Assembly: GCA_902609885.1 (NCBI GenBank)
Contig: CACLTT010000003.1
Span: 8,809 to 72,808 of the forward strand
From: an uncultured Candidatus Hydrogenedens sp.
GTDB taxonomy: Bacteria > Desulfobacterota_D > UBA1144
Reading direction: 5' to 3'
DNA: 64,000 bases
Shown: one piece after another, positions 811 through 35,013 of the stretch
Numbering within the stretch: position 1 is the stretch's first letter
Layout of the letters: each line of letters starts with the position of its first letter
Program-made: the position numbers and the translations under genes
Notes under the pieces: generated by a model
What the model was told of the DNA's origin: nothing
The model's database searches: none
The model's input: the letters and a program-made list of their open reading frames with translations, nothing else

Positions 811-1113
811 ATGAGGATAATCTTAGTTTTTTCATTACTAATTTTGAATTTATCAATTTTTCCTAATTTAACTATGAAAAATCATTTAGATCATAATGAA
901 GCCTCTCATTCTCATCATGGCCACTCAGAAGATATTCCATGCAATAATAATACTACTGAACCTTGCAACGAACATGAATGCTGTACCCTTTTTGTATTCA
1001 AATCATTAAATAATTTTAATTTTATAAACAATACTTCGTTAAAAACTTTTTTTAATAAATCAAAAATATTAAGTCTTAAGTTATCTGAAGTCTTTCGACC
1101 CCCAATTGTTTAA
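811..1113 (+). CDS. small secreted His/Cys-rich protein (putative periplasmic metal-binding)
   Basis: ATG at 811 lies just after the rmuC stop. N-terminal hydrophobic signal-like segment MRIILVFSLLILNLSIF, then HSHHGHSEDIPC...CNEHECC. Confidence 0.4.
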   Translation: MRIILVFSLLILNLSIFPNLTMKNHLDHNEASHSHHGHSEDIPCNNNTTEPCNEHECCTLFVFKSLNNFNFINNTSLKTFFNKSKILSLKLSEVFRPPIV

Positions 1114-1148
1114 TTTTTTTAAATTTAAATAATTGGAGGTTAATAATT

Positions 1149-1781
1149 TTGCATAGATTGCTATTTCTTATAGTTTTCTTCATATCTATAAATGTCTTTT
1201 CTAGACCAGTTTCATACACTGGTGGAACAACTTTTATGGCAATGAATGATGGTGATAGAATATCATCACACACACATTATTCGCCTAAATATTTTTATTC
1301 TGTAGGATATAGATTTGAATATTGGAAAGATAAAGATTATGTAAATCATTTTTTGCAAGGTAATTATCTCGTTGAAAGATTTAATAATACAGACTCTCAA
1401 GCAAATATTTATTTAAAAACAGGAATTGGTACATCTACTTATCTCGAAGGTGATAAAGATTACAATAAATCATATTTTATTGCAGGGTCGGCTGATTGGG
1501 AAACGCAAAAACTATATTCGAATTATGAAGTTAGATATTCGGATATAGGGAATATTGAAGATTTTATTTTTCATTCTGGAGCATTTGGTTTTGCTCCGTA
1601 TGTAGGTAATTATGGGGACTTACACACTTGGGCTCTATACACTTTTCAATATAATGAGGATAGAAATAAAAATAAATTTACCCATGGGCCAAAACTTAGA
1701 TTTTTCAAAAATACAAATTTAATAGAGGTTGGTATCAATAATAAAAAAGATTTGATACTAAATTTAATAATTAGATATTAG
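1149..1781 (+). CDS. outer-membrane beta-barrel protein (small, about 210 aa)
   Basis: TTG start 8 nt after GGAGGT. Signal peptide, alternating amphipathic strands, C-terminal ...IIRY aromatic terminus. Confidence 0.45.
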   Translation: MHRLLFLIVFFISINVFSRPVSYTGGTTFMAMNDGDRISSHTHYSPKYFYSVGYRFEYWKDKDYVNHFLQGNYLVERFNNTDSQANIYLKTGIGTSTYLEGDKDYNKSYFIAGSADWETQKLYSNYEVRYSDIGNIEDFIFHSGAFGFAPYVGNYGDLHTWALYTFQYNEDRNKNKFTHGPKLRFFKNTNLIEVGINNKKDLILNLIIRY

Positions 1782-1792
1782 AGGTTTTAAAA

Positions 1793-2158
1793 ATGAAAAA
1801 GAATATAGTAATAATTCTAACAATTTTATCAGTACTAACATTCAATTCATTTTCACATGACGGTGAGAATCATTCATCAGAGCATAGGTTAAAATTAGAT
1901 TATAAAGCTTCTGTTGGAACAATCGATCCTAACGGAGAAATGATCAGGGTTAATGTTAAAGGGCTTGTTTGTGATTTTTGTGCTAGAGCAATTGAAAAGG
2001 TTTTTATGAAAGAGAAATCAGTTGCTGGTCTGACAGTAAATCTTGCAGAAAAAGAAATTAAAATTTTTACAAAAAAAGGTATGAATATTGATGATGATAT
2101 TATAAGAGAAAAGATTAAAGATTCTGGATATATTGTTTCATCAATAGAAAGAATTTGA
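1793..2158 (+). CDS. periplasmic heavy-metal-associated (HMA) domain protein, MerP-like
   Basis: Signal peptide followed by the HMA motif GLVCDFCARAIEK (CxxC) in a ferredoxin-like betaalphabetabetaalphabeta layout. Confidence 0.65.
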   Translation: MKKNIVIILTILSVLTFNSFSHDGENHSSEHRLKLDYKASVGTIDPNGEMIRVNVKGLVCDFCARAIEKVFMKEKSVAGLTVNLAEKEIKIFTKKGMNIDDDIIREKIKDSGYIVSSIERI

Positions 2159-2535
2159 TGGATAAAGAAAAGAAATCATTATTAACACAAATTCTTGTTC
2201 TTTTTGCCAGCAGCAGTACCTTAGTATGTTGTGCTATACCTGCACTTCTGGTGGCAATTGGCGCAACAGGTGCATTAATAAGTCTTTTTTCAAATATCCC
2301 TTTTCTAATAACTATTAGTGAGAATAAAGAAATGGTTTTTATCATATCAGGCTTATTAATAATTATTGCATTTTGGACTCAGAGAAAAGATGAAATAGAT
2401 TCTTGTGAGCTTGATGACACACTGATGATGTCATGTAATAATCTCAAAAAAATTAATAAAATAATACTCTATTCAAGTTTGTTTATATATTTAGTTGGAC
2501 TATTCTTTGCATTTTTTGCTAAATATTTAATCTAA
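2155..2535 (+). CDS. MerT-like inner-membrane metal transporter
   Basis: Three TM segments. TM1 reads ASSSTLVCCAIPALLVAIGATGA (CC pair as in MerT ASACCLGPLV). The loop after TM2 carries a second Cys pair (DSCELDDTLMMSC). Its start overlaps the stop of the MerP-like gene. Confidence 0.6.
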   Translation: MMDKEKKSLLTQILVLFASSSTLVCCAIPALLVAIGATGALISLFSNIPFLITISENKEMVFIISGLLIIIAFWTQRKDEIDSCELDDTLMMSCNNLKKINKIILYSSLFIYLVGLFFAFFAKYLI

Positions 2536-2585: not shown

Positions 2586-2966
2586 TTATAAAGTAATTAC
2601 TTGATCGGGTGGGTTACCAGAAAGTGCTGTATATAGCTGCGGGAAACAACCAACGTGTACTCCATTTACAACATCTTTGGGTTTAACTTCGCCGGTTCCA
2701 CACTGACTGAATTCTCCTTCGGCAAGATTACGTCTTAAAGCACATTGGTCACATGCCATTAAAAGAATATTTTTTTCCTCTGCAATTTTAGCTAGACGCT
2801 CCCCTACTGGATCGCCCTTTCTTAAAGAAAAAACATTATCGTCAAAAAAGAACATTCCTACTACTTCAACAATATGACTATCAGCCTCAAGTTGTGGTAA
2901 TATCATTGACGATAATTTATAAGTTGCTGCCATATCGTTGGCAAAAACATAAGCTATTTTTATGAT
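2586..2966 (-). CDS. DsrE/DsrF (YchN/TusD-like) sulfur-relay family protein; start codon uncertain (possible AUC/AUA)
   Basis: Conserved Cys in LLMACDQCA. The conserved N-terminal strand IIIKIAYVFAN is encoded in frame upstream of the first ATG (2933). There is no ATG/GTG/TTG between the in-frame stop at 2979-2981 and 2933. Confidence 0.5.
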   Translation of the reverse strand: MIKIAYVFANDMAATYKLSSMILPQLEADSHIVEVVGMFFFDDNVFSLRKGDPVGERLAKIAEEKNILLMACDQCALRRNLAEGEFSQCGTGEVKPKDVVNGVHVGCFPQLYTALSGNPPDQVITL

Positions 2967-2968
2967 GA

Positions 2969-3889
2969 TTAACCTCCTTTAGATAAACATTCACGCAAAT
3001 TTTTTGAAAGATTAGTGACTAATTCAAAATAAAGATTTTTTCCAGGTGTTAAATTAAAACCTAGCGGGTCGAGCTCACCCTCTTTAGCATTGGTTTCCTG
3101 TATTACGGTTTGAACAATTCTTGATGGAAATTGAGGCTCTCTAAACAAACATACTACATTATCTTTTTCTATTTTCGTTTTAATTTCTTGAATCCTTTTT
3201 GGAGTAGGAGAAATATCTGGGTTTAAAGATATCGAACCAACTGAATTTAGTGAGTAATCTGCTTCAAAATACTGATAAGCATCATGAAATACAATATATG
3301 GCTCATTATTAACACTAGCTAATTTAGCACTAAGATCTTTATTAGTTTTTGATACTTTTTTTATAAATTCTTTTGCATTTGCTTTATAAAAATTTTTTTT
3401 ATCGGGTGATATTTTTGATAGCTCTTTTACAAAAAACTTTGTTAGCTTTATTACATTCTTAGTGCCAAGCCAAATGTGTGCATCATAAGCTCCGTGATTA
3501 TGTTCATGATGATCACCGTGGTCTTCTTCTTCCCATACACCGCCCTCTCTTATTGGCAGTAATGATAAATCTGCATTACCTAAAATTTTTATTGTTTTTG
3601 TATCTTCACCTAGAGCATTTAGAGGTCTTTCAATAAAAGATTCAATTGATTCATCAATATATATAAGTACATCTGAATCTGTTATTTTTTTCATGTCTGA
3701 GGGCTTAAGTTTAAAATCATGTGGGGACGAATTATTATTTAATAATAATTCAACATCTGAATCTACTATATTTAATAAAATGGAATGAATAGGTTTAATT
3801 GTCGTTATTATTTTCTTTTCATTACTATTTGCGACGAGTGTAAAGTTTAATAATAATAAAGTTAATAAAAAAGTGTATAAAATTTTCAC
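2969..3889 (-). CDS. znuA: zinc ABC transporter substrate-binding protein ZnuA
   Basis: Cluster-9 SBP fold with the characteristic His-rich loop EEEDHGDHHEHNHGAYDAHIW. A GTG start at 3889 gives the signal peptide KILYTFLLTLLLLNFTLVANS. The longer ORF to 3961 would run over the Zur box. Confidence 0.85.
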   Translation of the reverse strand: MKILYTFLLTLLLLNFTLVANSNEKKIITTIKPIHSILLNIVDSDVELLLNNNSSPHDFKLKPSDMKKITDSDVLIYIDESIESFIERPLNALGEDTKTIKILGNADLSLLPIREGGVWEEEDHGDHHEHNHGAYDAHIWLGTKNVIKLTKFFVKELSKISPDKKNFYKANAKEFIKKVSKTNKDLSAKLASVNNEPYIVFHDAYQYFEADYSLNSVGSISLNPDISPTPKRIQEIKTKIEKDNVVCLFREPQFPSRIVQTVIQETNAKEGELDPLGFNLTPGKNLYFELVTNLSKNLRECLSKGG

Positions 3890-3891
3890 AG

Positions 3892-3906
3892 TGTTATAAT
3901 ATAACA
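3892..3906. promoter_or_regulatory. Zur box (Fur-family operator) in the znuA/zur divergent promoter
   Basis: Perfect 7-1-7 palindrome TGTTATAaTATAACA, matching the core of the enterobacterial Zur consensus GAAATGTTATANTATAACATTTC. Confidence 0.75.
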
Positions 3907-4386
3907 ATGGGTTTTTTAATGTCAAATTGTTCAAATCATAATTTATGTATTGATTCTGCACTCGCAGAAGCAGAAAAAATATGTAATCAAAAAAATATAC
4001 GCTTTACAGATTTGAGGAGAACAGTTTTAAAAATAATATGGCAAAATCATAAAGCAATAAAAGCTTATGACATACTAGATCAGATATCTGGTATGAATTT
4101 TTCAGCCAAACCGCCTACTGTTTATAGAGCTCTAGATTTTTTACTAGAAAACGGATTCATTCATAAAATTAATAGTTTAAATTCATATATTGGATGCCCT
4201 CACCCCCTTCAAAATGAACAATGTTATTTTATTATCTGCTCTTCTTGTGATGAAATAGAAGAATGTAGTGACAAAAACATAACTAATGCCATTAAAACTG
4301 TAATGGAAAAAAATAAATTTACTCATAACAATATCGCGATTGAAATTGATGGTACTTGCAATAGTTGCCTAGAAAATAGAAAATAA
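3907..4386 (+). CDS. zur: zinc uptake regulator (Fur family)
   Basis: Called from genomic context (znuA/znuCB, Zur box) and Fur-family size. A Cys-rich C-terminus (C..C ... CxxC) is present; the N-terminal DNA-binding fold is a family assumption. The ATG abuts the Zur box, so the true start may be the internal Met at 3919. Confidence 0.75.
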   Translation: MGFLMSNCSNHNLCIDSALAEAEKICNQKNIRFTDLRRTVLKIIWQNHKAIKAYDILDQISGMNFSAKPPTVYRALDFLLENGFIHKINSLNSYIGCPHPLQNEQCYFIICSSCDEIEECSDKNITNAIKTVMEKNKFTHNNIAIEIDGTCNSCLENRK

Positions 4387-5891: not shown

Positions 5892-5908
5892 CTTGATGTT
5901 AATAAATG

Positions 5909-5924
5909 TTATGTTATAACATAA
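5909..5924. promoter_or_regulatory. candidate Fur/Zur-type operator upstream of the His-rich protein gene
   Basis: Perfect 16-bp palindrome TTATGTTATAACATAA containing the TGTTAT/ATAACA half-sites, 27 bp upstream of the ATG at 5951. Confidence 0.5.
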
Positions 5925-5950: not shown

Positions 5951-7138
5951 ATGAAGAATTTATTCTTATCATTTATAATTTTTTTATTAATTTTAGTGCC
6001 TTTTGAGTCCTTTTCTAAAGGTCACGAAAGTCATGATGATCACTCTGATCATGGAGGAGATACAGGTTTTTATATCCATTCTGGTATAAGAATACATCTC
6101 GACAAAACTCTTGATGCAGAAGAAGAAGGAGAGCAAGTTGATGAAGCCTCCACTCATTCACATTTTGAAATTGGTTACAACTTTAACGAAATGTTCTCTA
6201 TTATTTCAGATATTAAAATTGAGGGTGGTGATCATGGACACGCACACGGTGAAGAAGAATCTGAAACTCCAAAAGATAAGTTTTTTGAAGAACATAAAAC
6301 TATTGTAAACAAACTTTATATAAATATAAAAGCTGAGGATTTTGATTTTTATATTGGTAAATTCTCTCCTGTTGTAGGTATAGACTTTCATAAATTTCCT
6401 GGAGCTTATGGGTATCAAGAAGTTGAAGGTTATGCCCTACTTCAAAAGGTTGGATTGGGAGCTCAGTATACTGCTGATCTAGAGGATGCAGGTACTCACA
6501 AATTCAATTTATCAAGTTTTTATCAAGATACGTCATCATTAAGTCATTCTAGAATAAATAATGATGGTAAACTTCGTAAAGCAGACGGAGGTATCTCAAA
6601 TACAGAAGATCTATCCTCTTATGCAATTTCATTAAAAGGTAAAAACTTCTTTTCTCTTGATAATAATTTCTTAGATGGTTTCATGTACCAAATTGGGCAT
6701 GCAAAACAAGCAAAAGGTACAGGCGGAGAAGCTGATGAAAAAAGATACTCTGTTGGTTTTTCTCATAAATCATACTTGTCTGAAGATGTAACAATGATGT
6801 TAATTTTTGAATATATGGATATTGAAAAGCTGGGCGGTGAGAAGGGTCACGATAGAACCTATACTACCTATGGAGCAAATTTTGAATATGACAAATTCAC
6901 ACTTGGTGGAACAATAACTTTGAAAGATAATGACGCCGAAGAAGCTGATGAAAATGTAAATGACAGCGTTCGTCAGTTCTCTTTAGGATATTTTGTTACT
7001 GATCAGTTCAAAGTTGATATTGGCTATAAAAGAAAAAAGGCCTCTAATGAAGTTTCTAAAATAGCTGGAATAACTCTTAAATATGTTTTTGATTGGCCAA
7101 CAGGTGGACATGCAGGTCATGACCATCACGATCATTAA
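5951..7138 (+). CDS. secreted His-rich protein, probable outer-membrane beta-barrel; putative Zur-regulon metal-binding protein
   Basis: Signal peptide. N-terminal HESHDDHSDHGGD and C-terminal KYVFDWPTGGHAGHDHHDH His clusters. Central part has an alternating strand pattern ending in an aromatic residue. Confidence 0.45.
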   Translation: MKNLFLSFIIFLLILVPFESFSKGHESHDDHSDHGGDTGFYIHSGIRIHLDKTLDAEEEGEQVDEASTHSHFEIGYNFNEMFSIISDIKIEGGDHGHAHGEEESETPKDKFFEEHKTIVNKLYINIKAEDFDFYIGKFSPVVGIDFHKFPGAYGYQEVEGYALLQKVGLGAQYTADLEDAGTHKFNLSSFYQDTSSLSHSRINNDGKLRKADGGISNTEDLSSYAISLKGKNFFSLDNNFLDGFMYQIGHAKQAKGTGGEADEKRYSVGFSHKSYLSEDVTMMLIFEYMDIEKLGGEKGHDRTYTTYGANFEYDKFTLGGTITLKDNDAEEADENVNDSVRQFSLGYFVTDQFKVDIGYKRKKASNEVSKIAGITLKYVFDWPTGGHAGHDHHDH

Positions 7139-8293: not shown

Positions 8294-8713
8294 ATGAAAT
8301 ATTTAATTTATTTATTCTTACTTGTATTTTCATTTAACATAATTGGGATAACCAACTCTATTGCATCCACTACTCATGAGCAAACATGTAGAGATTTTAT
8401 AGAATTATTAAATGATACTACTGCAAGAATATCAGATTTAAACTTTAGTATGGAAGAAGAAGCTGTTCAGATGAAAAATGAAGTAGTAGAAGAACAATTA
8501 TCTATACTTAAAAAATATTATGGAGAATTAGGAGTTGGTGAGCTTGAGGTTGCTTGGCAAGAGGTGTGGGGAACAAAATTTTTTGAAGCGTCTTCAGCTA
8601 CAGCAAATACTCAAAGAGAAAAAGTTATCGAGATTTGTGGTGGCTATTATAATGAAACTGAATTAAACCAAATGGATTTCGTTTTACCAAGCTATTACGA
8701 GCTTAATGAATAA
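8294..8713 (+). CDS. hypothetical secreted protein
   Basis: Signal peptide; no recognisable domain. Confidence 0.4.
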   Translation: MKYLIYLFLLVFSFNIIGITNSIASTTHEQTCRDFIELLNDTTARISDLNFSMEEEAVQMKNEVVEEQLSILKKYYGELGVGELEVAWQEVWGTKFFEASSATANTQREKVIEICGGYYNETELNQMDFVLPSYYELNE

Positions 8714-9821: not shown

Positions 9822-10160
9822 TTAATTTTTTAAAAATAAAATTTTCACTAAAAGCATAACTATGGCAGTTGATGAGCATGAGACAATCATGGAGATTACA
9901 AAAGAAAAACCATTTTTTAACATATATGGCAATAAAAGGAATAATGGAACAGTTGCAAGTCCAAAATATAAAATTTCATAGCTAAGATTTGCAATTTTCA
10001 AAGTATCTTTTGATTCATAGTATATAAAACAAAAAGTTATTAGTGATACAAGTGGTAAAGCAATGATAAAAGCTGCTAGCACAGAAGATCTTTTAGATAT
10101 TTCTGTTGCAAGAACTATTATTAATGCAGATATTAAAACTTCTAAAATATATTTATACAT
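9822..10160 (-). CDS. small hydrophobic membrane protein
   Basis: Three to four predicted TM helices. Confidence 0.35.
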   Translation of the reverse strand: MYKYILEVLISALIIVLATEISKRSSVLAAFIIALPLVSLITFCFIYYESKDTLKIANLSYEILYFGLATVPLFLLLPYMLKNGFSFVISMIVSCSSTAIVMLLVKILFLKN

Positions 10161-10276: not shown

Positions 10277-11275
10277 ATGAAAATACCCAAAATTATTATT
10301 TTATTTATATTTTTAATAAGTGGAAATATATTCGCTAGCGAAAAGAAAGACTTAGATAACCATAAAAATCATGTTAATAATTCACATCAAAAAAATAATC
10401 ATATTATGTTGTCATATAAATATATGTACATGAAAATGGATGGATATTTAAAAGGATCCTCAGATGCTTCTTATAGTGATGCGAGAACTAAACCTAATGG
10501 ATCAAATTATATGACTGTTCCTTTAGAAATGAGTATGAATATGCACATGCTGAGCGGCATGTATACACTATCAAATGGTATTACCGTCATGTTAATGGGA
10601 TCTTATTTTGATAAAGAAATGGAGATGAAAAAGCATTCAAGTGGGAAAAAGAAAAAAATGAAATCTAATGGTTGGGGTGATACTAAATTTAATTTTTTAA
10701 AAAAAATATATAATAAAAATAAATCTAAAATTAATATTAATTTAGGTATTAGCTTCCCCACTGGATCAATTGAAAAAGAAGATACAATGTTTTCAGGCTC
10801 TAAAGAAACACTTGGATATGGAATGCAATTAGGTTCTGGAACATATGATTTACTTTACGGATTAACGTACAATAAATTCCAAGATAATTATTCTTATGGT
10901 GTGAGCATATCGAGTGTTAAAAGAATTGGTGAAAATTCAAGAGACTATTCACTAGGAGATATTTATAAATCAAATCTTTTTATAGCAAAACCTATTAACA
11001 ATGAAACCTTTATTAATTTAGAATCAGAGTTTAAATTTCAAGAAAAAATTGACGGGTCTCATAAAGATATTTTATCAATTATGAGTTTTGCTCAGGATAA
11101 AGAATCTTCTGGCTATAAAAGAATAGATTTAAGTTTTGGAGTTACTCATAAATTTAAAAATTTTAATAATTTAAAAATGGCATTAAAATTTAAAAAACCT
11201 ATTTACAATGACGTTAATGCAGTTCAACTAGAAACTGAGAATCTTATAATTATTGGTTTACAGTATAGCTATTAA
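10277..11275 (+). CDS. putative outer-membrane beta-barrel protein with a Met-rich loop
   Basis: Signal peptide, C-terminal ...GLQYSY. Contains MSMNMHMLSGMYTLSNGITVMLMG (MxM repeats). Confidence 0.4.
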   Translation: MKIPKIIILFIFLISGNIFASEKKDLDNHKNHVNNSHQKNNHIMLSYKYMYMKMDGYLKGSSDASYSDARTKPNGSNYMTVPLEMSMNMHMLSGMYTLSNGITVMLMGSYFDKEMEMKKHSSGKKKKMKSNGWGDTKFNFLKKIYNKNKSKININLGISFPTGSIEKEDTMFSGSKETLGYGMQLGSGTYDLLYGLTYNKFQDNYSYGVSISSVKRIGENSRDYSLGDIYKSNLFIAKPINNETFINLESEFKFQEKIDGSHKDILSIMSFAQDKESSGYKRIDLSFGVTHKFKNFNNLKMALKFKKPIYNDVNAVQLETENLIIIGLQYSY

Positions 11276-11312: not shown

Positions 11313-12167
11313 ATGGGAGATTTAGTAAAAATGAATCTATATAAATTTTTTTTAGTTTTTTTAATTTTTATCCTTTCAATAACAAATAATATATTTGCAA
11401 ATGATAGCCTTAAAGATGATTTAGAGTATTTAAAACCAAAAGAAAAACATAAAATAGGAATTGGTGGCGGATTTATTTATAAACCAACATATGTAGGTTC
11501 AAGTAGCATAAGGACTGTTTGGTTTCCCACTATCACCTACCAATATAACGACCCTGAAAAAGAGTATTTTAACTCTTTTGATCTCTTTGGTCCTTTTGCA
11601 TCACTATCTGTATACGATTCAAATGAATTAAGTTTCAACTTGATAGGAGAGTATGATTTTGGTAGGCAAAGTGGCGATGATAATTCTCTAGAGACTCTTG
11701 AAGATATTGACCCTCATTTTAATATGGGATTTGATTTTGCGTATAAAATTCCTTTTAATTTATCTCTTGACGTTGAATATCAAACTGGAGTTTCTGATCC
11801 AGGAACTGAAAATGCGGTGAGTTTTTCATTAACTCATAATAAACTTATATGGGTTAATTTTTCACAGCCACTCATCAATGAAGCATCAATTTCTATGAAT
11901 TATGGAAATTCTGAATGGATGGAAGAATGGTTCTCAACACCTTCAACTTCAAAATTTTCTAAATATACTGCAAAAAGTGGTTTTTATTCAACATCAATTA
12001 GCAATATGTCAGTCATTCCAGCAGGAGAATCTATGTCTTTTTTTGTTAATATAGAATATGAAAGACTAAGAGGTAATGCTGCTGATAGTCCACTTGTAAA
12101 AGATCAGGGATCTAAACATCAGTACATGTTTATGTTTGCAATTGTTTTTGAAATCGCTAAATTTTAG
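11313..12167 (+). CDS. putative outer-membrane protein (MipA/OmpV-like?)
   Basis: Signal peptide; beta-rich; C-terminal F. Confidence 0.35.
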   Translation: MGDLVKMNLYKFFLVFLIFILSITNNIFANDSLKDDLEYLKPKEKHKIGIGGGFIYKPTYVGSSSIRTVWFPTITYQYNDPEKEYFNSFDLFGPFASLSVYDSNELSFNLIGEYDFGRQSGDDNSLETLEDIDPHFNMGFDFAYKIPFNLSLDVEYQTGVSDPGTENAVSFSLTHNKLIWVNFSQPLINEASISMNYGNSEWMEEWFSTPSTSKFSKYTAKSGFYSTSISNMSVIPAGESMSFFVNIEYERLRGNAADSPLVKDQGSKHQYMFMFAIVFEIAKF

Positions 12168-12187: not shown

Positions 12188-12655
12188 ATGATTAATATAA
12201 ATGAAAATGAGATATTAGTTGCTCAAGAAAATTGGGGAAAAGGTATTGTTGAAATTGGTTATCAATATTTAAAGAATTTGGATTATGAATCTAGGGCAAT
12301 TAAACACATTAAAGATTTATATGCATATGAATTTTCAGATGTTTTATTTAAACCTACAAAAGTATCAAAAGTGCAATTTAGATCAACTTTTGATGAGGCG
12401 CTTTCTTATTTTGTAGCAACTAACAAAGTGTGTGAAGAAGATACAGGATTTGCAATTGAACCATGGTTAAACGTAAAATTTGAAAATTCAAATATTCTCT
12501 TATTTGAAAAAACTGCAATAGCGATGGGTAATTATTTTTTCACAAATACCAAATCAGAAATTACAAAAGTTGAATATACTTTCGGATACATTAAAAATGA
12601 GGATAATAGAATTCTCATAAACTTACACCATTCTTCTTTGCCATATGCACCTTAA
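12188..12655 (+). CDS. hypothetical protein
   Basis: ORF only. Confidence 0.35.
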   Translation: MININENEILVAQENWGKGIVEIGYQYLKNLDYESRAIKHIKDLYAYEFSDVLFKPTKVSKVQFRSTFDEALSYFVATNKVCEEDTGFAIEPWLNVKFENSNILLFEKTAIAMGNYFFTNTKSEITKVEYTFGYIKNEDNRILINLHHSSLPYAP

Positions 12656-12762: not shown

Positions 12763-14157
12763 ATGGGATTAACAGCAGATAAGACTTTTTATCCTACTGC
12801 AAAAATGGCTATGGAAGCCCCAGCAGAAGAATTAGCATACGTAGCAACATTAAATGTTCACGGAAAACCTGATTCATTATGTACGGTTGATGTAAATCCA
12901 AATTCACCAGATTATCAAAAAACTGTGAGTGAATTAGTCTTACCGAATATAGGTGATGAACTTCATCATTTTGGATGGAACGCGTGTAGTGCACACTTGT
13001 GCCCTTATGCACCCCACCCTGATGTAGAAAGGAGATATTTATTAATTCCTGGATTACGTTCTTCAAGATTATATATAGTTGATACTAAAGATAATCCTAA
13101 AGAGCCAAAAATTATTAAAACAATTGAGCCAGAAGAAATAATGGAAAAAACTGGATACAGCAGGCCACACACAATACATTGTGGACCTGAAGGAATTTAT
13201 GTAAGTGCCCTTGGTGGAGGAAGTGAAAGTGGTGAAGGCCCTGGTGGAATTTTCTTAATTGATCATTTAACACTTGATGTTAAAGGACAGTGGGAAAATG
13301 ATCGTGGACCTCAATATTATGCCTATGATTTTTGGTGGCATTTAGGACATGACAGAGTTGTTACTTCTGAATGGGCAACACCAGACTTATTTGAAAACGG
13401 ATTAAACTTAGAGGCTGCAGTTGGTGGTAAATATGGTCATAAACTTCACGTTTGGGATCTTAAAACACACAATCACCTTCAAGAGCTTGATCTAGGAAAA
13501 GAAAATCAAATGGTTTTAGAATTAAGACCATCAAAAAATCCAAAAAATACCTACGGATTTGTAGGAGTTGTTGTTAATACTCAAGACTTATCAGCATCTA
13601 TTTGGACCTGGTATCTTGATAAAGGAGAATGGAAAATTCAAAAAACTATCACAATACCTGCGCAACCAGCTGCGGCTGAGGAACTTCCTGCTCCACTAAA
13701 ACAATTTGGTGCAGCTCCTCCACTAATAACAGATATTAATTTATCCCTAGATGATAAATTTCTATACGTTTCATGTTGGGGTACAGGTGAGATTATCCAG
13801 TATGATGTATCAGATCCTTTCAATCCTAAACAAACTGGGTTGATTGAAATTGGTGGAGTCGCAAAGAAAAAAGCACATCCATCCGGTGCTGCTGCATCTG
13901 GCGGACCACAAATGGTTGAACTTAGTAGAGACGGGAAAAGATTATATTTTACAAACTCTCTATATAGTAGCTGGGACGATCAATTCTATGATGATATCAA
14001 GGGTTGGTTTGTAAAAGCTGATATCGATCTTAATGGTGGATTTGAAATAGATAAAGATTTCTTTATGGATTTTGGTGACCAAAGAACTCACCAAGTTAGA
14101 TTACAAGGCGGAGATTCTTCATCTGATTCATTTTGTTTCCCTAATGAAGAAAACTAA
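12763..14157 (+). CDS. selenium-binding protein SBP56 family (methanethiol oxidase homolog)
   Basis: Full-length match to SELENBP1/MtoX landmarks: TVDVNPNSPDY, DELHHFGWN, GGPQMVELSRDGKRLY, C-terminal GGDSSSD. No signal peptide. Confidence 0.9.
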   Translation: MGLTADKTFYPTAKMAMEAPAEELAYVATLNVHGKPDSLCTVDVNPNSPDYQKTVSELVLPNIGDELHHFGWNACSAHLCPYAPHPDVERRYLLIPGLRSSRLYIVDTKDNPKEPKIIKTIEPEEIMEKTGYSRPHTIHCGPEGIYVSALGGGSESGEGPGGIFLIDHLTLDVKGQWENDRGPQYYAYDFWWHLGHDRVVTSEWATPDLFENGLNLEAAVGGKYGHKLHVWDLKTHNHLQELDLGKENQMVLELRPSKNPKNTYGFVGVVVNTQDLSASIWTWYLDKGEWKIQKTITIPAQPAAAEELPAPLKQFGAAPPLITDINLSLDDKFLYVSCWGTGEIIQYDVSDPFNPKQTGLIEIGGVAKKKAHPSGAAASGGPQMVELSRDGKRLYFTNSLYSSWDDQFYDDIKGWFVKADIDLNGGFEIDKDFFMDFGDQRTHQVRLQGGDSSSDSFCFPNEEN

Positions 14158-14166
14158 TTTCTTCAA

Positions 14167-14769
14167 ATGGACCACATACACTATAGCTTCTTTATAATTT
14201 TAGGCTTTTATCATGGAGTCAACCCGGGAATGGGTTGGCTCTTTAGTGTTGCTCTGTCAATGCAAAGAGAATCAACAAAAACTATTTTTATAAGTCATAT
14301 ACCTATAGCTATAGGACATCTACTATCTCTTATAGTTACAATTTTAGTATATTACGTTATTCAAGACTTTATAACACCCGAAACAAGTAAATTGTTTTTT
14401 GCATTATTATTAATTGGTTTTGGTATTTACAAATTGATTGACCGAAGTCATTTTAATTGGGTAAAAATGAACGTTAATAATTTTGATCTATTTATATGGT
14501 CATTTTTAATGGCTTCTTCTCATGGTGCAGGACTAATGTTAATACCAGGTTTTAATTATGAAGGAGATCACATGGTTCATCATTTAGAACATTTTGGTTT
14601 TTTTGCATTAGGAATCCATACATTAGCAATGCTTATAACATCAATTATTATAGCTTTTTTAGTTTATAAATTAATTGGTCTTAGAATTTTAAGAACAAGC
14701 TGGATAAACTTTGATTATATTTGGTCTTTTGTATTGATACTTGGTGGATTATTCATCTTTTTTATTTAA
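14167..14769 (+). CDS. polytopic membrane protein (possible HupE/UreJ-like metal transporter)
   Basis: Six TM segments; internally repeated GFYHGVNPGMGW / SHGAGLMLIPGF motifs. Confidence 0.3.
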   Translation: MDHIHYSFFIILGFYHGVNPGMGWLFSVALSMQRESTKTIFISHIPIAIGHLLSLIVTILVYYVIQDFITPETSKLFFALLLIGFGIYKLIDRSHFNWVKMNVNNFDLFIWSFLMASSHGAGLMLIPGFNYEGDHMVHHLEHFGFFALGIHTLAMLITSIIIAFLVYKLIGLRILRTSWINFDYIWSFVLILGGLFIFFI

Positions 14770-34344: not shown

Positions 34345-34386
34345 TTAACTGTATTATATTACATAACTTTTTGTTAGAATATCACA

Positions 34387-35013
34387 ATGAATAAATATAT
34401 AGCAGAATTATACGGAACATTCTTATTGGTATTAGCCATTATAGGAACTTTTATTATGACTCAATCCTTAGGAGCTCCTTCTTACATTACTTTGTTAACA
34501 GTAGCATTAGCCGTTGCACTTGTATTACTTTCTAACATAACAATTTTTTCAAAAGTCTCAGGCGCTCACTTTAATCCTGCAGTTAGTTTAATGATGTATT
34601 TGAGGAAAAATATAACTTTTCAGGAATTTATTTCCTATTCATTATTACAAATATTAGGTGCTGTCTCAGCGGTCATTTTTGCTCACTTAACATTTGATTT
34701 TGGACAAACTTCCATTTCTTTTGTTTCAAGAAGTACAAATGGAATATTGCTATCAGAATTTTTAGCAACTGCTGGGCTGCTTGTAGCTATTATTCATTCA
34801 GAGAAATTTTTTCCTGACAGAGTGCCTTCTGTTGTTGCCTCATATATTTTTGCGGCTACCTTCTTTACAACCTCAACCTGTTTTGCGAATCCAGCTGTAA
34901 CAATCTCTAGAATTTTTACCGACACTGGGGTAGGTATAAATTTAGAATCTGCGATGATGTTTGTTCTTGTTGAATTATTAGCAGTATTTATTGTTTCAAA
35001 AGCAATTAATTAA
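34387..35013 (+). CDS. MIP-family channel (aquaporin/glycerol facilitator-like)
   Basis: Two NPA motifs (HFNPAVS, NPAVTIS); six TM helices. Confidence 0.75.
   Translation: MNKYIAELYGTFLLVLAIIGTFIMTQSLGAPSYITLLTVALAVALVLLSNITIFSKVSGAHFNPAVSLMMYLRKNITFQEFISYSLLQILGAVSAVIFAHLTFDFGQTSISFVSRSTNGILLSEFLATAGLLVAIIHSEKFFPDRVPSVVASYIFAATFFTTSTCFANPAVTISRIFTDTGVGINLESAMMFVLVELLAVFIVSKAIN

Follow-up and report, generated by a model that had tools for sequence, protein, structure and literature searches.

Copper routes across both bacterial membranes are poorly known, with OprC/NosA-type TonB receptors, CcoA and CopCD as the known examples. In copper-resistance operons, CopB-CopC-CopD and PcoB-PcoC-PcoD form three layers: a barrel in the outer membrane, a copper chaperone in the periplasm and, in the inner membrane, a presumed copper importer. 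Here we analyse a 64,000-nucleotide stretch of contig CACLTT010000003.1 from an uncultured Candidatus Hydrogenedens sp. (hereafter the window; G+C about 29%). At positions 811-2535 it carries four co-directional open reading frames (ORFs), g1 to g4, which an earlier sequence-only reading had described as an envelope-spanning metal module resembling MerP and MerT. Our analysis suggests that the locus is a leader-gated operon, in which a metal-sensing leader ORF (g1) would precede a barrel, an HMA-domain chaperone and a MerT-like relay for a copper-type metal. We give this reading a probability of roughly 0.55.

The closest described systems for g1 are small exported peptides encoded ahead of metal genes. 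In CutF of Rhodobacter capsulatus, a signal peptide is combined with a CxxxC motif and a Pro-rich tail (PMC9973294). Copper prolongs a stalling-like state of CutF, the stem-loop over the Shine-Dalgarno (SD) sequence of cutO unfolds as a result, and the exported protein is rapidly degraded (PMC9973294). CruR of Bordetella pertussis (bp2923) carries a CXXC motif and, at a fixed distance from it, a RAPP arrest motif at the C-terminus; here copper relieves the arrest, which leads to Rho-dependent termination (PMC9426467). Like CutF (cutFOG) and CopL (Xanthomonas copLAB), DUF2946 proteins that act in cis, g1 is a small exported first gene with a Cys motif and a Pro-rich tail, followed by a short intergenic region and a predicted stem-loop over the next SD. 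Unlike in those systems, the downstream genes do not encode a multicopper oxidase, the Cys motif is CxxCxxC or Cx4CC instead of CxxxC, the Pro and stop codons themselves form the predicted anti-SD strand, and the g1 of the window scores below the family thresholds. With CruR, g1 shares its position as an upstream ORF, a Cys motif, a fixed spacing to an arrest-like PP motif two to three residues before the stop, and an operon with an outer-membrane protein. The two differ in that CruR has RAPP, 45 intervening residues, a 162-nucleotide (nt) intergenic region and Rho dependence, whereas g1 has RPP, 37 residues, a 35-nt intergenic region and an SD-hiding helix. The operon headed by CruR serves metal acquisition and is turned off by copper.

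For g3 and g4, the nearest design is that of MerP and MerT: a periplasmic HMA protein with CxxC next to a three-helix protein with one Cys pair in the first transmembrane helix (TM1) and another in the TM2-TM3 loop, the two genes being adjacent and translationally coupled. Here, in contrast, there is no merA or merR, the HMA gene comes before the MerT-like one, the loop pair is Cx9C instead of the Cx5C of Tn501, scores are sub-threshold, the context is one of copper or zinc, and a dedicated outer-membrane barrel is present. The trio g2-g3-g4 has the three-layer logic of CopBCD and PcoBCD and, like them, is found in copper clusters, but no sequence relationship was detected, an HMA domain stands in place of the CopC fold, and three helices with Cys ligands stand in place of the eight-helix CopD. 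The leader adds a member to a known class of mechanisms, and the trio departs from the MerT/MerP plan and carries a barrel of a new family.

Organization of the locus

The elements of the locus are as follows.

811-1113, plus strand: g1, 100 amino acids (aa), probable exported leader ORF of the DUF2946/CopL/CutF/CruR type
1097-1141, plus strand: predicted RNA helix over the g2 SD, arms 1097-1113 and 1125-1141
1149-1781, plus strand: g2, 210 aa, predicted outer-membrane 12-stranded beta-barrel, family unnamed
1793-2158, plus strand: g3, 121 aa, periplasmic HMA-domain protein
2158-2535, plus strand: g4, 125 aa (126 aa from TTG 2155), MerT-like three-helix inner-membrane protein
2528-2570, no strand assigned: perfect 18-bp hairpin between g4 and a convergent DsrE-like gene

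The rmuC gene lies upstream and ends 22 nt short of g1. The intergenic gaps are 35 nt between g1 and g2 and 11 nt between g2 and g3, and the TGA of g3 (2156-2158) shares base 2158 with the ATG of g4. The hairpin behind g4 (minimum free energy (MFE) -21.8 kcal/mol, z -8.2) is probably a bidirectional terminator that marks the end of the operon. An Rfam scan of the whole window gave no match. Because each of g1 to g4 has conserved homologues and the order g2-g3-g4 is kept, we take them to be real genes and not chance ORFs. In this the sequence-only reading was right: the small first gene, the outer-membrane barrel, the HMA protein with a signal peptide and the MerT-like protein with both Cys pairs follow one another as it had said.

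The first gene resembles exported metal-sensing leaders

As read from its sequence, g1 consists of a signal peptide, a His-rich stretch, a C52-x4-C57-C58 motif and a terminal R96-P97-P98-I-V-stop. Homologue searches with g1 yielded close relatives only, and distant members were reached through synteny, a small ORF being present upstream of the trio in about 57 of 83 loci. Conservation among these relatives is confined to the signal peptide, a CxxCxLC motif (represented by Cx4CC in the g1 of the window), the terminal (R/K)-P-P-I-x-stop and, often, a DCPM motif. The spacer between the last Cys and the R/K is variable in sequence, yet of 54 relatives 42 keep it at 37-38 residues, and the window has 37. 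Such a fixed length without sequence conservation argues for a ruler rather than a fold.

Matched individually, 12 of 21 g1 relatives hit CopL_fam of NCBIfam (best 5e-9), 10 hit DUF2946 of Pfam and 5 hit CzcI, and the Polynucleobacter orthologue is labelled 'DUF2946 domain-containing' in UniRef. The feature set of the DUF2946/CopL/CutF/CruR class, that is, an export signal, a Cys motif and an Arg/Lys-Pro-Pro at a fixed distance from it, is found in g1; the exact RAPP of CruR is not in the g1 of the window. In the manner of CutF, g1 is also the first gene of a metal operon with an SD-hiding stem-loop, as predicted by MFE folding. We conclude that g1 is most likely a cis-acting exported nascent-peptide metal sensor of this class and not a structural periplasmic protein. 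With g1 as a leader, the locus becomes a leader ORF plus a three-gene module instead of a set of four structural components.

Some leader ORFs upstream of the trio have variant tails (...TPPPRS, ...TPPPRT, ...LPPPRL, ...HPPPKITA and ...YHPPRT) in place of (R/K)PPI. These ORFs are located at 4461-4862 in L021, 4289-4783 in L060, 608-1171 in L086, 6606-6929 in L089 and 6533-6916 in L093, where L numbers designate the related loci. The variants suggest that several subtypes of arrest tail exist.

The end of g1 is predicted to pair with the g2 Shine-Dalgarno

The 5' arm of the predicted helix (1097-1113) is made of the Arg-Pro-Pro-Ile-Val-stop codons of g1, and its 3' arm (1125-1141) holds the g2 SD, GGAGG (1135-1139), ahead of the g2 start at 1149. 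The helix of the window has an MFE of -21.2 kcal/mol and a z of -4.6. The same design is predicted in L001 (g4 71% identical) through CCUCCAA:UUGGAGG, with a z of -3.7, and also in L089, a more distant relative, where the Pro codons of an HPPP tail do the pairing. High-GC betaproteobacterial loci reach the same architecture by another route: AUCUCC(UGA), or UCUCCA just past the stop, pairs with a downstream GGAGAU.

To count such cases, we required at least four of six SD-region nucleotides to be paired, in the MFE structure, with the segment that opens with the first Pro codon and closes 12 nt after the stop. The SD pairs with the end of g1 in 35 of 47 related loci on heuristic SD and start calls, whereas dinucleotide shuffles average about 0.9 of the 6 SD nucleotides; the loci are phylogenetically related to one another. 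In close relatives the g1-g2 junction is almost invariant, which makes covariation uninformative there.

A conserved trio of barrel, HMA and MerT-like genes

A scan with the g4 pattern over one genome per species found 334 genome stretches that encode a g4 relative. The best 80 of these are mostly from Burkholderiales (Ramlibacter, Rhodoferax, Polynucleobacter, Methylotenera, Leptothrix), with a few labelled Rickettsiales, Bdellovibrionia, Verrucomicrobiae and Nevskia. We examined closely 88 sequences, namely 87 related loci and the window. With profiles of our own, g2 was found directly upstream in 83 of the 88, the 5 exceptions being cut by a contig end, and an HMA ORF lies between g2 and g4 wherever DNA is available. 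The synteny expected from the window is hence invariant for the order g2-g3-g4 wherever the DNA suffices, and many loci carry the trio without g1. Apparent g3-g4 fusions in L030, L048 and L083 were rejected as artefacts of longest-ORF calling, separate HMA ORFs being present in them.

The g2 product has a signal peptide and ends in ...LIIRY, a C-terminus typical of barrels. AlphaFold2, run with 15 homologues, confidently predicts a 12-strand barrel with a mean predicted local distance difference test score (pLDDT) of 85.7. A Foldseek search with this model returned outer-membrane barrels only (KdgM, NanC, Occ porins and autotransporter domains); KdgM and NanC reach a TM-score of about 0.5, and the matches are to generic 12- to 18-strand barrels. 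Searches of g2 against Pfam and NCBIfam at E values up to 1 gave no match, CopB (PF05275) included, profile searches of the PDB with g2 and g4 gave nothing relevant, and database sources name the g2 homologues 'hypothetical'.

The g3 product has an N-terminal signal-like segment, a His-rich N-terminus and C60-D-F-C63 (GLVCDFCA), and the HMA assignment stands the Pfam test (PF00403, 26.0 bits against a gathering score of 24.8). Within NCBIfam it comes closest to copper chaperones of the CopZ type, though it does not reach their cutoffs. The g3 of the window gives no match to the MerP equivalog of NCBIfam, and the Polynucleobacter orthologue scores 29 bits against a MerP cutoff of 92.55.

The g4 product has three transmembrane helices with a Cys-Cys in TM1 and a Cys pair in the TM2-TM3 loop. 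The TM1 pair (C25, C26) is invariant in both a 19-sequence and a 14-member alignment, and the loop pair (C84, C94) is near-invariant in the former and invariant in the latter. Homologues of g4 form a tight family marked by FxSxSTLVCCAxPALLV in TM1 and CPxDPxLxxAC in the TM2-TM3 loop. The Arg/Lys content of this loop suggests, by the positive-inside rule, that it is cytoplasmic. Three long helices are seen in an AlphaFold2 model of g4, which is of low confidence (pLDDT 63). An hhalign comparison of the 14-member family with Tn501 MerT (a query 100% identical to annotated merT) gave an E value of 1e-4 and a probability of 56% over 95 columns. Some g4 homologues bear an automatic 'MerT' label in UniRef, and database sources otherwise name g4 'hypothetical'. 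Because the scores of g4 against MerT models are sub-threshold and few family members match Pfam MerT (values below), g4 is a distinct family that resembles MerT and is not MerT by curated criteria. The sequence-only reading was borne out on the conserved Cys pairs and on the likeness to MerT.

In L005 (Polynucleobacter), a TlpA/Redoxin-type gene for a periplasmic thioredoxin-like protein (6451-6936) directly follows the MerT-like gene, and its product may keep the Cys ligands reduced. AhpC_TSA genes are also listed by the CruR paper in DUF2946 operons (PMC9426467).

Neither merA nor merR turned up, whether in the 64 kb of the window or among the 87 related loci. The only disulfide-reductase motif of the window, at about 50035, is 47 kb from the module and belongs to a dihydrolipoyl dehydrogenase (494 bits, above the cutoff of that model, with the MerA model below its own). 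No MerA-type redox motif occurs in the 87 loci, and the MerR-family neighbours in relatives are CueR. This absence of MerA-type motifs from the loci and the window rules out decay of a mer operon, and upholds the earlier view that the locus is not one for mercury resistance. The combination was also said not to be a described system, and we found no description of the barrel-HMA-MerT-like trio in the open-access papers and preprints searched; the available part of the supplements of the CutF paper (PMC9973294) contains no HMA or MerT terms.

Copper or zinc context of the module

In 36 related loci a CusF gene lies between g1 and g2. Further genes near the trio in relatives encode a multicopper oxidase (10 loci), an OEP efflux protein (9), a CopI-like cupredoxin (8), a copper P-type ATPase (5) and CueR (5; 165.6 bits, above cutoff), and some trios come straight after cusA-cusF. 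These copper genes make Cu(I)/Ag(I) the likeliest substrate, and the metal handled is most likely Cu(I), perhaps also Ag(I). The sequence-only reading had proposed the uptake or handling of a thiophilic metal outside mercury resistance. Uptake would follow by analogy with MerT and MerP, and the conserved neighbours elsewhere, which are copper genes, allow the choice of metal to be narrowed.

In the window and its close relatives the module lies beside zur-znuABC. In L089 and L091 (about 40-41% g2 identity) it is adjoined by a Zur-like gene, a Zur-boxed TonB receptor with DUF1826 and a DUF3299-FtsX-ABC transporter. Zur boxes are located in the window at 3889-3909 and 5906-5922, and a scan that does find boxes at the neighbouring genes detected none ahead of the module in the window, L001, L089 or L091. 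The His-rich stretches of g1 and g3 are present in the window and L093 and absent in L089 and L091. The module thus recurs beside zinc-uptake genes in low-GC marine genomes, and Zur boxes at 11399-11440 in L089 and 11223-11243 in L091, before the TonB receptor-DUF1826 operon and in the divergent region between zur and the ABC transporter, adjoin it.

The sequence-only reading had also placed the module beside the Zur/Znu locus and a DsrE-like gene. The former adjoins the module, but no Zur box precedes it, and the latter goes with znuA:

2586-2933, minus strand: SaoD/DsrE-family gene (NF040913, 189 bits, above cutoff), 35 nt downstream of znuA on the same strand

This gene is present in L094/L095 and absent from L001-L004 and L096/L097, the module being kept in L001 and L096. 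According to Haft's preprint, the SaoD/DsrE branch most often neighbours the binding proteins of metal-import ABC transporters. The DsrE-like gene is thus to be grouped with znuA and not with the module.

Proposed mechanism and alternatives

The locus would work as a single operon in which the leader ORF senses the metal and three structural genes respond. We propose that g1 is exported co-translationally, so that the Cys (and His) motif is 37 residues behind by the time a ribosome translates the Arg-Pro-Pro codons at the C-terminus, a distance that would place it just outside the exit tunnel. If CutF and CruR are a guide, binding of metal to this motif would alter the time that the ribosome dwells on the Pro and stop codons. 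Since these codons are the predicted anti-SD strand, a dwelling ribosome would open the helix and allow translation of g2, and g3 and g4 would follow through close or overlapping coupling. At the membrane, g3 would act as a periplasmic CxxC chaperone and g4 would relay a soft metal from the Cys-Cys of TM1 to the Cys pair of the cytoplasmic loop. Transport is most likely directed inward, from periplasm to cytoplasm, judging by MerT and MerP, the sole characterised analogues, which import metal.

Several points weigh against this proposal. The g1 of the window has no match in Pfam and only weak ones below curated cutoffs elsewhere (CopL_fam, 16.3 bits with a cutoff of 40; lpg1681_fam, 21.5 bits with a cutoff of 95). 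Full-length comparison of g4 with MerT stays below threshold both in Pfam (PF02411, 21.6 against 32.9) and in NCBIfam (NF010314, 23.8 against 150), and only 3 of 14 family members match Pfam MerT at E below 0.1. The support for the RNA helix is an MFE prediction over related loci, with little true covariation. The copper context comes mostly from Burkholderiales, whereas the window and two other low-GC marine lineages have zinc-uptake (Zur-type) neighbours, and the His-rich stretches of g1 and g3 in the lineage of the window would also suit Zn or Ni. Finally, CutF and CruR respond to copper in opposite senses, so that metal may switch expression on, as with CutF, or off, as with CruR.

It is possible, although we are inclined to doubt it, that the trio assists in detoxification: induced by copper, it would carry periplasmic Cu(I) outward or park it, with CusF, the barrel or the medium as the recipient. 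In Burkholderiales, trios occur within or next to resistance clusters (cus, cop, CopI, CueR), in some cases right behind cusA-cusF, and the copper-inducible design of CutF likewise has a short intergenic region and an SD-hiding helix. However, the only characterised relatives of g4, the MerT proteins, import metal, the trio has no energy-coupling component, and no resistance genes are adjacent in the genome of the window. An unlikely reading restricted to the marine low-GC lineage is that the module handles zinc (or cadmium) as part of the zinc-starvation response. The lack of a Zur box before g1 or g2 in the window, L001, L089 and L091 speaks against it, as do the absence of His-rich stretches in L089 and L091, the in-operon partners across the family, which are CusF and other copper genes, and the chemistry of a vicinal Cys-Cys with CxxC, which favours Cu(I), Ag(I) or Hg(II). 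It would nonetheless account for the position of the module next to zur-znuABC and to a His-rich porin with a Zur box, both in the window and in relatives with a g4 down to 71% identical, for the Zur-like gene and Zur-boxed genes beside it in L089/L091, and for the His-rich stretches of the window and L093; moreover, some DUF2946-class members (CzcI) head Zn/Co/Cd systems.

That g1 is instead a stable periplasmic His/Cys metal-binding protein, and the locus a set of four structural components as the sequence-only reading had it, seems improbable to us. The signal peptide, the many His and Cys residues and the co-conservation with the trio in about 57 of 83 loci agree with such a role. Yet only the signal peptide, Cys motif and tail are conserved while the spacer keeps its length, the codons of the tail are predicted to base-pair with the downstream SD, the trio occurs without g1 in many loci, and exported CutF is reported to be rapidly degraded (PMC9973294). 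The spacer ruler, the RPP tail, the pairing of the tail codons and the family matches make a leader the more likely identity of this small protein. Least probable by far is a remnant of mercury resistance, a merT-merP pair left after loss of merA and merR: the weak MerT and HMA similarities and the automatic UniRef name 'MerT' on some homologues are set against the lack of a merA motif in 87 loci, the dihydrolipoyl dehydrogenase identity of the sole candidate in the window, a gene order with HMA before MerT-like and a barrel before both, MerR-family neighbours that are CueR, and a family kept across hundreds of species.

Neighbouring genes in the window

Just upstream of an ORF at 5951-7138 is a Zur-box-like palindrome, ATGTTATGTTATAACAT, at 5906-5922. 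The ORF encodes a protein of 395 aa with His-rich N- and C-termini and a weak Porin_4 match, which may be a zinc-regulated outer-membrane channel; box and gene are both kept in L001. The longest ORF of znuA (2969-3961, minus strand, 330 aa, GTG start) overlaps the start of zur (3907-4386, plus strand) and the Zur box at 3889-3909. The true znuA start is probably some 24 codons downstream, since ZnuA has 305-306 aa in relatives. A weaker Zur-box-like site with 3 mismatches (34371-34387) is found immediately upstream of a MIP-family channel gene (34387-35013, plus strand).

At 11313-12167 (plus strand) there is a gene for a MipA/OmpV-family outer-membrane protein (93 bits), and the ORFs 8294-8713, 9822-10160, 10277-11275, 12188-12655 and 14167-14769 near it have no Pfam match. 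The gene at 12763-14157 (plus strand) encodes a homologue of SBP56 (603 bits), named selenium-binding protein in database sources. We take the SBP56 family to include copper-dependent methanethiol oxidases, an activity that would create a copper demand.

Implications

We suggest, as a tentative extension of the leader-gated operon, that the trio represents an unrecognised and widespread family of envelope-spanning importers of a soft metal, Cu(I), under the control of a nascent-peptide sensor whose stall codons serve as the anti-SD strand, and that it may be a main route for trace copper (or zinc) in streamlined marine bacteria. If this is true, a MerT-like thiol relay with a barrel of its own would constitute a new copper route in hundreds of freshwater and marine species, and a design known from mercury import would serve an essential metal. 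The leader would extend the mechanism of CutF and CruR, described in 2022-2023, to a new type of operon, and the pairing of its arrest codons with a ribosome-binding site would offer a very clean system for metal-controlled translational arrest.

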